A DNA stretch of 64,000 nucleotides, taken from the NCBI RefSeq assembly GCF_030013205.1, contig NZ_CP122648.1; one strand, given 5' to 3'. Below are positions 19,301-25,300 of the stretch, piece by piece. The DNA comes from Escherichia coli. GTDB taxonomy: Bacteria; Pseudomonadota; Gammaproteobacteria; Enterobacterales; Enterobacteriaceae. The position numbers were made by a program. Each line of letters begins with the position of its first letter. Position 1 is the first letter of the stretch.

Positions 19301-22300
19301 CTAATTATTTAAAATTAAAGCCATCCGGATGGTTTTCCAGGCTGCCGGTCAACGCCGCGAACAGCACCGTTTTACCATCAATCGAAAGCGCATCGTTCAC
19401 ATTCAACCAAGTGAGTTTCTCTTGCGACGTTTTCTCATCAATAGTCGAGAACAGCCCCGTCATCTGATTAGATTTCTCGGACCACATCACAGCGATACGT
19501 TGCGAGCCACAGTCATACGGTTTGCACGCGCTCATCACCTGATACGTCTCATCTCCCAACGTTACGGTTTGTGCGGGAGTATAAGTACCGCCTTTCATCA
19601 CCCATGCAGGTAGCTTATGCCCTTGCACCATCTGATTAAACGCAGCTTTGGTGGTTTCGCCCTTTGCAAGGCTGCTAATGGTTAAATCATCCTGCGCCAT
19701 TGCACTGGTGGCGATGACCAGAGCGGCGACTGTCGTTATTGCCTTAAACATCATTCCTCCCGAGCTTATCCTGCCCATGTTATTAACCTCCTAAAGCCTG
19801 GCGATAACACGATAATTTGCAAATCAGATATTTCCAATATCAGCATTTGTTATCAATTTATTCTGCGCTAAGGCAACTGCCTGATAAGGTGTTAGAGTTA
19901 TAAAACCCTTCGCATAAAGGAGTTGTACACCGTGCCTGGTTTGAAGATTACGCTTTTACAGCAACCACTGGTGTGGATGGATGGTCCTGCCAACCTGCGT
20001 CATTTTGATCGTCAACTGGAAGGTATTACCGGGCGCGATGTGATCGTTCTACCGGAGATGTTTACCAGCGGCTTTGCCATGGAAGCGGCAGCTTCGTCGC
20101 TAGCACAAGATGACGTAGTGAGCTGGATGACAGCCAAAGCGCAGCAGTGCAATGCGCTGATTGCAGGCAGTGTTGCATTACAAACGGAGTCTGGTTCGGT
20201 TAACCGCTTTTTGCTGGTTGAGCCGGGCGGCACGGTACATTTTTATGATAAGCGTCATCTGTTCCGCATGGCAGATGAGCATCTACATTATAAAGCGGGC
20301 AATGCGCGAGTGATTGTGGAATGGCGCGGCTGGCGTATTTTGCCGCTGGTGTGCTACGACTTACGTTTTCCTGTGTGGTCGCGCAATCTCAACGATTATG
20401 ACCTCGCCCTGTACGTCGCCAACTGGCCTGCTCCGCGCTCTCTGCACTGGCAGGCATTGCTGACGGCCCGCGCGATTGAGAATCAGGCGTATGTAGCGGG
20501 ATGCAATCGCGTCGGCAGCGATGGCAACGGCTGCCATTATCGCGGTGACAGCCGGGTGATTAATCCACAAGGCGAGATTATCGCTACTGCCGACGCGCAT
20601 CAGGCAACACGCATTGATGCGGAGCTGTCGATGATGGCATTGCGGGAATATAGAGAAAAGTTTCCGGCATGGCGGGATGCGGATGAGTTTAGGTTGTGGT
20701 GAGTGGGTGTTGTGTTTAGGGCCGGGGAGAGTCAGGGTAAGACTACGAAAGCCCGCTCCCTGCAAGGACTGACGCCAGGTAGTTTCTGTCCATGGCTGCT
20801 TTTCGCATCTTACGTCTTAACCCTGCCTTGAATACATTATCATTCGTTAAAATATTAATAGCGATGTGCCGTATCCCTGAAAATAATTCTGCTGCATTTC
20901 CTCTTCTTATTTTTCAGTCGTCTTTATTCATTACCACGTCCAGACGCCAGTGCAGCTTATTCTCCACGTGCCAGTGGTTTCGGATTGCTGTGGCGAACTT
21001 CTCTGCGGTTAAATCAGCAGAACTGATATAATATCTGACCGTCATTTCTGGCTCTTTCTTTTGTTCTGCTATTATTGACCGAAAGGAGACTGCCACACAT
21101 AATTTCTTCAGTCCTTTCCATTCAAACGTGAAATCAATAAGTTCATCAGGGACATCGCAAACAATATGAAGACGGATTTCTTCTCTGCCGTGACTCTTTT
21201 CACTAATGGCGTAACTGTCATGCTCTGGATTATTTAATTCTTTCAGTGGAAATTTTTCCTCAAAGGCTTTATTAAGCCGCCCCTGATTTCCTTTTACAGC
21301 GAATAAATAATCACCGCCCTGTTTTTGTATCTTCTCTGCAATATCTTTCTGGCAACCCATCGCATCAGTTGTGATGATTTTTCCTTTAATATCCAGCACG
21401 TTAAGAAGTTCAGGGATAGCTGTGATTTCATTGAATTTCTCATCCGTCCTGATCTGTCCGATGACCAGACTGTGCATTGTTGAGAACGCACTAATGACAT
21501 GAATCGCTCCCCTGCGGCGACTCTTGTCATAAGAATGCCGGAGCGTTTTTCCATCAATTGCAATGACGTCTTTATCATCTGAAGAATGGCAGTCACGCAT
21601 CCAGTTAATAAAGCACTCGTGAAATTTTGCAGGACTGATACAGGATACAACTCTGGCAATGGTATCGTGAACAGGAATACCATTTTCAAAATCACCGTAT
21701 TGTTTTAAAAAATCGAGATGTGTTTCCCCAAAATCCTCTATATCTTCCCAACCTTCTGCACCAGAAATAACGGCACAAATAGTCAACAGTAGAATATCCG
21801 ATAATTTATGTTCCACTTTCCAGGCTTGTCTGTAATCGGGAATAATAGAAATATGCTCCATCAATTTTTTAAGTTCCATTTTGTTCTCCTTAATTATGTA
21901 AGGAGTATTTGATCATGTATACGCAATAAAAAACAGCTTCAGGTAATGAGGAATATCTCAATTTTTAAGCATAAAATGCGAATTGTTTAGTACAAAAAAG
22001 CAGCGTTACGTGATCTTTCCCTGCACTTCACCCTAACTTTAATTTAACTTCAAGAAGTATTAAGGCCTCAATAGCGAACTTAATACTTCTTAAAGAATAT
22101 CACTCCTGACCAAAATCTTTCCACACTAATGCATGAGACTTTGATTTATCACCCAAAAATTTACTTACATCTTTCCAAAGTAAAGAATTGCTATCGGTCG
22201 CAGTGACTATTGCCTCTATAAGCCCTGTAGCTACAACTGTGGCCAATTCATCATCAATCGAGACCATACCATCTTCGACATGTTTAAATATTTTTTCTCT

Positions 22301-25300
22301 TTCAATATCACCCATTTCATAAAAATTTTTTACAATCGTTTTTCCAATCTGAGAGAACAACATAACCACCGGTGGAGTTTCTGGATGCCAGTATTCATTA
22401 GCTAATGAGACTGTCTCAGACAAAACAGTGGAAAACGATGCCATTTTTTCTATATAATTAGCAATATATTGGTTCATTACTTGCCTCCCAAAGCATTCTG
22501 TAAATCCTGAAGAACGTTTTCTGCTGCTGCTCGATCCCCTGGAGATGCTGTTGGATTCTTATCCAACCAATCCTGTAAAGCCCTTGTATAATCCTGTGCT
22601 TTCAATACATGTCCTCTACCACCAACTTTTTCACCTGTGGCCAATTCATAACGAACAGCATCTGCTGTGCTTCCACTTCCTACTTTTGCATTTGGCCGAT
22701 AAAGATCGTCTATAATATTTTTCAAATTTGAATCTGTAACGTCAGGTTTTCCCATCTTCTGTCGCAATTCATCTTTATACCGTTCATGCTGCATACGATC
22801 TCTTGCGCTATTCTCATCTTCTGGTCCCCATCCTCCCGGGCTTCCCGTACTGCCACCACCCAGGCAGTTCTTCTCTTCCTCCGTCAAATCCTTCCCGACA
22901 TTTGGATTCTCTTTTGATGAATCATCATTTCCAAACACGCTGGAAAAAGCACCATAGGGATCTCGCCAGAATTCCATTTGACTTTGTGCATTTAATAATT
23001 CGGCTTCACCCTGCATCTCCATACTTTTCTCAATCGCGTCCCCAACAGCCTCGCGATTGTTGTATATTATTATACCACCACCAATAACCACCGTACCGAC
23101 TGCCGCACCGACTAACATCCCCGGAGGGCCTCCTACCGAACCGATCTCTGTACCTACTTCAGAACCAGTTCCCATGGCAGTTAATGCTCCTGCGCCCAAC
23201 GCCGCACTTAATCCCAGCGGATCCAGCCGTTGCACCGGGTTCAGTGGATACGCATACAGGTTCCATCCCCCCTTCAGCCCAATCGGATCCTGGGTGATAT
23301 ACCTCCCCTGTAGCGGGTCATAGTACCGGTGACGGTTGTAGTACAGCCCCGACTCCTCATCATACTGCTGCCCCGGCAGACGGAGTGACTGTTGAAGGTG
23401 CTGCGTGCTTTCCTCTCCCAGCAGGTTTCCCCACTCGTCATACTCCCCGCGCCACGCCGTTTCCCCTTCCGGGCTGATAAGCGCCTGCGGCAGCCCACGG
23501 TGGTCACAGTGGTAAAGATGAAGTTTCCTCTCCGGGATGTATTCCGCCTCCAGTTGCGCCGCCATCTGTTCCGCCGTCAACCCACACTGTGCAAGCCACT
23601 GCTGGCTTTCTTCACTCACGCTGCCCTGCCGCAGTTCCCGCTCCAGCCTCCCCAGCATCACCGCCAGCTCCGCCGGTAGCGTCACACCCGTGTCCTCCTG
23701 CAACACCTCCGCCAGGCTACGGTGCCGCGCCTTCGCCTGTTCGCCATTCTCTGTTTCGATTCTCAGGAGCGGCGTGAAGCTCCCCGGCTGGTATACCGTC
23801 TGGATACGCGTGGTGTCGGTCTGTACCGTCGTCAGCCTGTCGCCGTCCCACCCGTACCAGGTCACCTCCGGTTTACGCGACAGCGACATCCACCCCGTCA
23901 GGTCACGCTCCCGCCGCCACACCCGTTTTCCCGTCCGGCGGCCCAGCGGGTCATAGAGGTAGCGGCTCTCCACCTGTGGCTCGCCGTGCTGTATCCGCGT
24001 GTAGAACACCAGGCGGTGCTGGCTGTCGTAATGGTAGTGGTGCGTCCGCTCGTCGTGCATCCGTATCACCCCTTCCGGGATACGGTCCGTCTTCTCCGCC
24101 AGCCTGCCGTATTCATCGTAGCGGTAGACATAGTGCGCATCTTCCGTGATGCGGTTATCCGGCCATGCCGTGAGGGTGCTGTCCGGGTGCAGTTCCGGGG
24201 CCGGCAGCCGGTTTCCTGCCGGGTCCGTCGCATACGGGATATCAATGTCCAGGTTCGCTGCCGTGGTGTGGACGCCCGTCAGCCTTCCCGTGTCGCTGTA
24301 ACGGTACTCCCGGCTCTCCTGCGGGCCGCTGATGCGAATTAGCTGTCCGTTGTCGTTCCAGTCGTAGTCACGGTCAAGCTGCGGAAGGTTCAGGTGCCTG
24401 CTCCGGAGCTGGCCGCTGGTATTCCAGGCGGTGGCAAGCTCATATGCCTCCCCGCCGAAGCTGCGGGCCGTCTCACGGTGCAGCCGGTCCCGCGTGTACT
24501 CGACCAGTGGCGTACCACCCAGCTTCATTCCCGCAAGATAACCGCTGCCATACGTCAGCCACTCCACCGGCGGCAGACCGTCCGGCTCCTGACGGGTCGC
24601 CAGCCCCTGTTCGCTGTACGCGTGCTTCGTCTCATGCTCCCACAGCATCTCCCCCGTCTCCGGGTTAACGTGGTTAATTACTACTTACAATGACCTGCCG
24701 TTAATCCCAGACAGGCAGATGCAACTCACTTCACGGAACCGCATCATTTTTCAGTATTTTTTACATACAAACCGAGCTAGAATTTACGGTTGTCGTAAAA
24801 ACTATTTTTAAAATCATTAAATCTCTTATTCAGCAATAAGTTAATAATATATATCTGGATAACCATACCCAACTGTTCAAAGTCCGTATTGCCTCCATAA
24901 AATGGCCAAAGCTGAATCATGAATAAATATTGTATTTATCCTTTCTGAATTATCATTTTGATAATTTTTGAGATATTCCTTAAAAATACCCACTTAATCA
25001 ATCACAAAACAAATATATAAACAATCAATCATCAAATTAGCTTATGTTTAATGAAATTATTTTATAATTCAATAAGTTACATAAATGCTCTATATTTAAA
25101 TTATTGCCATAATACACCTGACGCGAATTGCACAGGTTCACACAATCTATTTAACGCTTGCAGAACACCCCTCTTTACGATCGATAAAAAGTCCTTTTCT
25201 TATTTATTTTGAAGCGTAGAATGCGGGGTGATGAAGGAGTGGTGATTTTATTTTCACCGCCATTATGGCGGCATTGCCGATATTTTTTTGCGGTACAAAT

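Follow-up and report, generated by a model that had tools for sequence, protein, structure and literature searches.

Remnant of a T6SS-linked Rhs effector locus in Escherichia coli with a widespread, unnamed toxin domain and a DUF7674 immunity gene

We analyzed a 64,000-nt stretch of contig NZ_CP122648.1 from Escherichia coli (assembly GCF_030013205.1; hereafter 'the window'), which carries on its minus strand a 5'-truncated rhs gene with a C-terminal toxin tip, followed by a gene for a 125-aa protein. With good confidence, we read this locus as the decay remnant of the effector end of the E. coli aspV-linked type VI secretion system (T6SS) cluster, whose hcp-vgrG-rhs operon has been described as 'T6SS2-Rhs' (Ma et al. 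2017) and as 'Rhs locus 7 / type i1' (PMC10761095). Starting from the ancestral order tssB <-> hcp-vgrG-rhs-rhsI-ISEc1, one microhomology-mediated deletion of ~5.3 kb joined the 5' untranslated region (5'UTR) of hcp to the middle of the YD-repeat shell; the polymorphic tip and the translationally coupled immunity gene survived intact. An earlier note on this DNA had proposed an orphan Rhs that is truncated at its 5' end, carries a toxin at its C-terminus and is coupled to an immunity gene. The truncated toxin-immunity arrangement is supported by our analysis; the term 'orphan', in the sense of a displaced tip cassette, is not, as synteny identifies the fragment as the main rhs of an hcp-vgrG-rhs operon that lost its head in a single deletion. 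The locus itself is of a known kind, a T6SS-linked Rhs effector/immunity pair in decay that is already treated as a pseudogene in the NCBI pipeline: in the PGAP annotation of the identical locus, the gene is a pseudogene named 'RHS repeat-associated core domain-containing protein, missing N-terminus', and the gene after it encodes the hypothetical protein WP_001077735.1. The new points are limited to a large unnamed toxin family and to the reading of DUF7674 as its immunity partner.

The main rhs gene is truncated in place by a deletion

In other E. coli, for instance strain CFSAN061763, a tip and immunity gene with 100% DNA identity to those of the window end an hcp-vgrG-rhs(4.5 kb)-immunity-ISEc1 array that runs divergently from tssB; the 3' core is likewise 100% identical to that of strains with the full operon. 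According to PGAP, the neighbors of the window locus are yafV-ivy-fadE in one direction and tssB-tssC-tssE-tssF... in the other. By blastn, window positions 20733-24666 aligned with positions 10734-14667 of locus L002, and positions 24658-25399 with 19931-20672 of the same locus. The DNA lost between both blocks amounts to ~5.26 kb and comprises hcp, vgrG and ~2.3 kb of 5' rhs (the first ~770 codons). At the junction, the hcp 5'UTR ...GTAATTAACCACGTTAAC|AAGGAGTTTACAAATG is fused to rhs-internal ...GAGAAC|CCGGAGACGGGGGAGATGCTGTGG. The two sides share an AAC microhomology, with seven of nine positions matching over AACnnGGAG, and the hcp-side site is located 14 nt before the hcp ATG. Were this a displaced cassette, a full-length rhs with its own immunity gene should precede it within the same Rhs element; upstream of the fragment we found the hcp/tssB intergenic region and no full-length rhs within the window. 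Because of the synteny with intact loci and a single deletion with mapped breakpoints, the fragment is the main rhs of the locus, truncated in place, and the mapped breakpoints show its origin by deletion.

The junction is rare. Among 5426 complete genomes, only 17 covered at least 80% of a query spanning it, and these are without exception swine isolates (enterotoxigenic E. coli (ETEC) or O139:H1). Over 3.3 kb, the region matched 17 complete genomes with 100% identity, again all swine ETEC or O139:H1. Tip and immunity gene together occurred at an identity of at least 99% in 267 of the 5426 genomes.

All features that had been read from the sequence in the earlier note were recovered at this locus. 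The rhs frame opens inside the YD-repeat region at 24684, as stated (first codon 24684-24682), directly after a TAA at 24687-24685, and it ends with a TAA at 22479-22477. Its first Rhs-derived residues aligned close to position 771 of the Rhs of strain CFSAN061763, which is ~1500 aa long, in agreement with the estimate that about half of the protein is missing. That any start is missing holds for the native 5' end, which is gone; yet an in-frame ATG is found 12 codons into the fragment (24648-24646) with GGAG 9 nt upstream, and a start at this position makes a 723-aa product conceivable. The fragment matched the Pfam families RHS (PF03527, E = 7.5e-15) and RHS_repeat (PF05593, E = 5e-5). The core, described as ending in DPIGL...DPLGL, is closed by the autoproteolysis motif PxxxxDPxGL at 23209-23238, with DPIGL preceding it; this motif is intact in sequence and forms a putative cleavage site. 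The AT-rich tip behind it measured 243 aa (estimated at ~245 aa). The sharp drop in GC content at the boundary between core and tip was likewise confirmed, from 0.635 in the core to 0.49 in the pre-toxin module, followed by 0.45 in linker plus toxin and 0.35 in the immunity gene. Translational coupling of the 125-aa open reading frame (ORF) is evident from a TAATG overlap and a GGGAGG Shine-Dalgarno sequence at 22489-22484, 6 nt before the ATG. The coordinates of all modules are given in Table 1.

The apparatus that would fire such an effector has decayed as well. In the intact cluster, the gene order is tssH-vasI-tssA-tssM-vasL-hcp. In the window, a second deletion (34887-37725) left tssH cut at its 3' end and abutting a 5'-truncated vasL; vasI, tssA and tssM, which take up ~7 kb in the intact cluster, are absent. 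In addition, tagH (30977-32257), encoding an FHA-domain T6SS regulator, has an internal stop that leaves only a 324-aa ORF open (31283-32257). Compared to a complete T6SS (tssA-M plus hcp and vgrG), the cluster thus lacks core genes, and hcp1 and vgrG are deleted too. Rhs itself is no longer a complete shell, as the N-terminal half with the PAAR/VgrG-loading region was deleted along with vgrG and hcp. This gene content shows the T6SS apparatus at this locus to be non-functional. The toxin can neither be loaded nor fired from here because the N-terminal PAAR/VgrG-loading part, hcp, vgrG and core T6SS genes are lost.

The tip and its immunity gene have outlasted more than one truncation at this locus. 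In ETEC4073 (L005 7378-9069), 1.7 kb of the rhs 3' end is joined directly to tssH. CUPF12-type strains (L063 2953-5250) kept hcp and lost vgrG together with 5' rhs. In either case, the toxin tip is still present, as is an undamaged immunity gene (WP_001077738.1). The truncations in the window, in ETEC4073 and in the CUPF12-type strains are three independent events, all of which spared the tip and the immunity ORF. This would fit selection that favors the keeping of immunity ('disarm but keep the shield'). In the strain analyzed here, the only plausible residual role of the locus would be immunity against relatives firing the same toxin, with the gene being read from the retained hcp-side promoter region. 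Viewed this way, the locus documents T6SS decay in a host-adapted E. coli lineage in which the immunity gene outlives the weapon.

Three considerations weigh against this interpretation. First, a promoter scan gave one minus-strand candidate in the hcp/tssB intergenic region (24956-24929), but promoter and terminator scans of 21880-25400 yielded counts not above the shuffled expectation. We therefore make no promoter claim, and continued expression of the immunity gene is something we infer. Second, tip and immunity gene match functional copies with 100% identity; it may be that the deletion is recent and their retention not necessarily selected. Third, non-delivery was judged at this locus, and another full-length rhs or a second T6SS elsewhere could re-arm the tip. 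An alternative view is that toxin fragment and immunity gene are pure genomic debris, inactive and simply not yet purged after recent T6SS decay. The 100% identity to functional copies implies a very recent event, the carriers are only 17 clonal swine isolates, and neighboring genes are pseudogenized too (tagH, tssH, vasL and the ISEc1 transposase). However, three independent truncations have each left the tip and a complete immunity ORF in place, which is not obviously what unbiased deletion would bring about. Moreover, 250 other sequenced E. coli carry the tip at an identity of at least 99%, and some of these may still deliver it, which would make immunity valuable. On balance, we consider debris an unlikely explanation and retain that of a T6SS remnant with a plausible surviving immunity function.

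Table 1. Modules of the truncated rhs locus and adjoining features (positions in the window)
Feature	Position	Strand	Basis or remark
Rhs YD-repeat shell and core, 3' half	23209..24663	-	Pfam; 99% identical to L002 10734-14667 (blastn)
Pre-toxin module, tip residues 1-99	22912..23208	-	Gly-rich; one transmembrane-grade hydrophobic segment 23065-23121
Inter-module linker, tip residues 100-132	22813..22911	-	Shared with CdiA-CT(UPEC536); module swap point
Toxin domain, tip residues 133-243	22480..22812	-	~110 aa (111 aa), five helices, basic
Immunity gene, 125 aa, WP_001077735.1	22100..22477	-	Pfam DUF7674; predicted immunity function
Deletion junction	24664..24666	-	AAC microhomology; blastn against L002 and three-way sequence comparison
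Retained hcp/tssB divergent intergenic region, GC 0.33	24667..25346		98% identical to L002 19931-20672; former hcp promoter and 5'UTR region, predicted to read into the rhs fragment
ISAs1-family (ISEc1, 'H-repeat') transposase pseudogene	20743..21879	-	PGAP: internal stop; borders the Rhs element downstream of the immunity gene

The toxin family and its DUF7674 partner

The C-terminal domain of the tip is, by profile comparison, a member of a large and widespread polymorphic-toxin family that carries no name. A profile was built from first-round homologues and used at a threshold of E ≤ 1e-3. It retrieved 2407 representatives of 50%-identity clusters (1708 at E ≤ 1e-10), and the match was always C-terminal, in proteins of up to 2634 aa. 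In 38 long family members, the N-terminal parts consisted of PT-VENN, TPS and haemagglutinin repeats (CdiA), RHS repeats or TcdB/SpvB. A genome scan with one genome per species gave 51 toxin loci from more than 12 phyla, with identities to the E. coli domain of 45-78%. The taxa include Serratia, Erwinia, Gilliamella, Xanthomonas, Ralstonia, Bradyrhizobium, Campylobacter, Streptomyces, Nocardioides and Clostridia, and also Erysipelotrichaceae, Parachlamydiales, Caedibacter, Rhodopirellula, Cyanobacteria, Chloroflexi, Treponema, Myxococcota and Patescibacteria.

The earlier note had been unable to assign the toxin to a named family by eye, and the searches gave the same outcome. No named toxin family matched in Pfam, NCBIfam, PADLOC or in sequence and fold searches of the PDB. 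A search of AFDB50 returned only members of the toxin family at E ≤ 1e-6, and the AFDB names were uninformative save for A0A0X8D552 (44% identical), which is called 'Bacterial toxin 28 domain-containing protein'. The domain is none of the named Rhs-CT types (MPTase4, REase-3, Toxin_55, AHH, MafB19 and others). No paper containing the toxin motif was found in a full-text literature search, and none of the all-alpha families in the tables of Zhang et al. 2012 (PMC3482391) shows it. Comparison with the toxins PT1-PT9 described by Nachmias et al. (main text and one supplement, in which the sequences are incomplete) gave no match; identity with PT5 or PT6 is conceivable.

The gene following the toxin was conserved as well. 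As neighbor we counted a plus-strand ORF of at least 60 aa that starts between 60 nt upstream and 250 nt downstream of the toxin stop. Such an ORF was present at 48 of the 51 genome loci. At 44 of these 48 loci, which come from other species, it encodes a homologue of the window immunity protein and lies only a few bases from the toxin stop; plain phmmer found 27 of the homologues and profile iteration all 44. An immunity homologue is positioned directly downstream of the toxin in L006-L010, and distant toxin homologues from three metagenomic or genomic contexts are each followed by the gene for a DUF7674 protein of 124-132 aa. The window protein itself matched Pfam DUF7674 (PF24722) at E = 5.7e-4; among the aligned homologues, 34 of 36 did so at E ≤ 1e-3 (best 1.5e-23). 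The earlier note had named a non-conserved and unexpressed downstream ORF as a point that would speak against its reading. The ORF is conserved and belongs to an existing, uncharacterized family, to which the position after the toxin adds the immunity reading. A full-text literature search for DUF7674, PF24722 and WP_001077735 found no mention. By its conserved position directly after the toxin (44/48), DUF7674 is identified as the predicted immunity family. Varied carriers (CdiA, Rhs and Tc-type proteins) and an adjacent immunity gene characterize toxin and DUF7674 as a putative polymorphic toxin-immunity pair.

The pair recurred in amoeba-associated or intracellular lineages, namely Caedibacter (on a plasmid), Paracaedibacter, Parachlamydiales, Rhabdochlamydiaceae and Francisellaceae (L027, L031, L032, L040, L041, L043, L049). 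This recurrence hints at a possible use between symbionts or against hosts.

Among 142 representatives, R42 (R or K), G48, G50, S51, T52, R57, E59, H71, K74, D96 and D106 (model numbering) of the toxin domain are conserved to 94-100%, and N102 to 92%. Adding 129 gives the tip numbering: R171, G177, G179, S180, T181, R186, E188, H200, K203, D225, N231 and D235. AlphaFold2 predicted five helices for the toxin domain, with a predicted local distance difference test score (pLDDT) of 82.5, and an all-helical immunity protein with seven helices (pLDDT 96.8). The toxin family is basic (median isoelectric point (pI) 9.0). The immunity protein is acidic, with a pI of 4.8 (family median 4.6) and a maximum Kyte-Doolittle 19-residue mean of 1.34; no signal peptide or transmembrane segment was detected in its 125 aa. 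Against the PDB, the immunity profile gave only weak matches to designed helical-repeat proteins and no match to CdiI-536.

The tip is modular and shares its linker with a two-domain toxin of contact-dependent inhibition (CDI). CdiA-CT(UPEC536) consists of a cytoplasm-entry domain, a linker and an Ntox28 tRNase (PDB 5J43, 5J5V), and is thus alike in its modular C-terminal region. By phmmer, the PDB chains 5j43_F, 5j5v_B and 8zyc_B matched tip residues 94-168 at E~1e-5. The match covers the CdiA-CT(UPEC536) linker between entry and nuclease domains and not the nuclease, and it is the sole part of the tip that matched PDB sequences. The shared linker reads ...NPN[IV]GKDLT.[AE]EK..LGG.GSG... and is followed in both proteins by a small all-helical C-terminal toxin. 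The CdiA proteins P0084, P0085 and P0087 carry the same linker. In CdiA proteins, linker and toxin stand behind VENN and various entry domains; that of P0085 is of the CdiA-CT(536/ECL) type, so that this protein joins a 536-type entry domain to a window-type toxin. Unlike CdiA-CT(UPEC536), the window tip has a Gly-rich pre-toxin module with one transmembrane-grade helix and no CysK-binding GYGI tail, and the toxin domains are without detectable homology by sequence profiles.

Exchange at the linker was also seen at the DNA level. In 136 genomes, only immunity gene and toxin domain matched, with the alignment stopping at the linker (query 1-803/830), and ETEC4073 (L005) has a different pre-toxin module before the same linker and toxin. 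Conversely, the pre-toxin module (93.5% DNA identity) precedes a different C-terminus in orphan fragments of ~545 genomes. These comparisons identify the linker as the point of module exchange. The horizontally exchanged tip that had been proposed from GC content is thus borne out by the same toxin standing behind other pre-toxin modules and the same pre-toxin module before another C-terminus. The Gly-rich hydrophobic stretch noted in the tail was confirmed, with a Kyte-Doolittle 19-residue mean of 2.16, and the pre-toxin module may accordingly have a membrane-insertion or translocation role. A weak match of tip residues 2-76 in this Gly-rich hydrophobic segment to the candidate defense protein PDC-M09A of PADLOC (E = 7.7e-4) is probably compositional and was rejected.

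The orphan fragment of these ~545 E. coli genomes, the Rhs-element ORF WP_000960005.1 (L004 4853-5305), contains the window-type pre-toxin module and linker. It ends in another short C-terminus (IRNTYRSIKDAPQYPRGF...) and is followed by the gene for a DUF3969 protein. Both may represent another toxin/immunity pair or a truncated one.

On an intact Rhs or CdiA, the toxin would reach the cytoplasm of the target cell. There it would be an enzyme whose activity relies on the invariant R/E/H/K/D residues and whose substrate is most likely nucleic acid, and the immunity protein would block it through direct binding. A cytoplasmic site of action is suggested because the immunity protein has neither signal peptide nor transmembrane segment and because the toxin sits behind CdiA cytoplasm-entry domains, which carry the C-terminal toxin of CdiA-CT into the cytosol (PMC9424206). 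With less confidence, we infer an enzyme acting on nucleic acid, most likely a nuclease, from the invariant Arg/Glu/His/Lys/Asp residues, the GSGST loop and the pairing of a basic toxin with an acidic immunity protein. This loop stands at the N-terminus of a helix and resembles a phosphate-binding nest. Among CdiA-CT domains, the majority are nucleases.

Beyond the locus, toxin and DUF7674 may form an undescribed cross-bacterial family with a new helical fold, a catalytic set R..GSGST..R.E..H..K..D unlike that of characterized toxins, a universal cytoplasmic target and possibly a new activity. We propose this tentatively, at somewhat less than an even chance. The phyla concerned are Proteobacteria, Actinobacteria, Firmicutes, Chlamydiae (including amoeba symbionts), Cyanobacteria, Planctomycetes, Chloroflexi, Spirochaetes and Patescibacteria, and the unusually high conservation, with identities of 45-78% between E. 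coli and lineages as distant as Streptomyces and Chlamydiae, suggests that such a target is universal. As the family extends beyond the coverage of Pfam, NCBIfam and PDB, it offers an annotation upgrade for thousands of 'hypothetical' proteins. The 111-aa toxin, with six candidate catalytic residues, and the 125-aa immunity protein are targets for characterization.

The PDB match to CdiA-CT536 prompted the idea that the toxin domain is a divergent Ntox28 (PF15605), a tRNA anticodon nuclease like that of CdiA-CT(UPEC536). As this match is confined to the linker, the idea was set aside as a finding and kept as an improbable alternative. Both domains are small, all-helical and C-terminal to the same linker, the spacing of GG..H..[K/E] and of the C-terminal NP...AL.G is similar by eye, and the one informative AFDB name is that of toxin 28. 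However, hhalign of the two family alignments gave a probability of only 5%. None of the 57 family members scanned matched PF15605, even at E ≤ 0.1, and neither did the window protein. The Ntox28 signature consists of D, K[DE], [DN]HxxE and E (Zhang 2012, PMC3482391), whereas the toxin family has HxxK, preceded by G/R/K rather than D/N. The missing match between the immunity profile and CdiI-536 in the PDB also argues against Ntox28. We thus favor a separate, unnamed family.

Residual activity and relation to known Rhs loci

In many respects, the window locus resembles the T6SS-linked PAAR-Rhs pairs of E. coli. It shares the genomic position, the core, the PxxxxDPxGL boundary, an AT-rich polymorphic tip, coupled immunity and the downstream ISEc1 H-repeat, but it has lost the N-terminal ~770 aa, vgrG and hcp, and its secretion apparatus is broken. 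The rhs-orphan of Salmonella Typhimurium (Koskiniemi 2014; Starsta 2020, PMC7043789) is likewise a 5'-truncated rhs with some core, a toxin tip and an immunity gene, and in principle recombination or internal expression would be possible for the window fragment as well. Unlike the window fragment, which is the main gene truncated in place, the Salmonella orphans are displaced and located downstream of a full-length rhs.

Internal expression would turn the locus into a toxin-antitoxin (TA)-like module, with translation starting at ATG 24648 or another internal start, self-cleavage at DPLGL, and an immunity-restrained toxin that modulates growth. The retained hcp 5'UTR immediately precedes the ATG with its GGAG, an intact PxxxxDPxGL motif is present and the immunity gene is translationally coupled. 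Furthermore, internal promoters of Salmonella rhs loci have been reported to yield toxic proteins with type II TA-like behavior (Starsta et al. 2020, PMC7043789). However, half of the shell is gone, which makes folding and autoproteolysis doubtful, and the arrangement of ATG and ribosome-binding site arose by chance from rhs-internal sequence and is absent from the two other truncations (ETEC4073 and CUPF12-type). We regard such a module as decidedly improbable.

A classical orphan rhs-CT/rhsI cassette, that is, a displaced silent reserve re-armed by recombination with a full-length rhs elsewhere, is very improbable: ~1.45 kb of conserved core is retained as a recombination substrate, the K_EC180 chromosome has four other places with megablast similarity to the query, and activation of the Salmonella orphan by recombination is documented (Koskiniemi 2014, as cited in PMC10761095), but the fragment stands precisely where the main rhs belongs, the missing part is explained by a single deletion whose breakpoints were mapped, no full-length rhs precedes the fragment in the window, and re-arming would need another T6SS, as the linked one is non-functional.

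Neighboring features of the window

The transposase pseudogene bordering the Rhs element in the window has an intact copy in CFSAN061763; in the window, an ORF of 321 aa is left (20914-21879). A conserved 74-aa ORF (WP_000123970.1, hypothetical) is present between tssB and tssC (25882-26106) in all clusters examined. At the far end of the T6SS island, an IS200C transposase (40978-41436) is inserted between a yafT-like gene and tRNA-Asp (aspV); this insertion is absent from the CFSAN061763 locus. Outside the island, positions ~10109-13310 contain a remnant of the lateral flagellar (Flag-2) locus, consisting of lafU and an N-terminally truncated flhA pseudogene, and adjoined by a HicA/HicB toxin-antitoxin pair.

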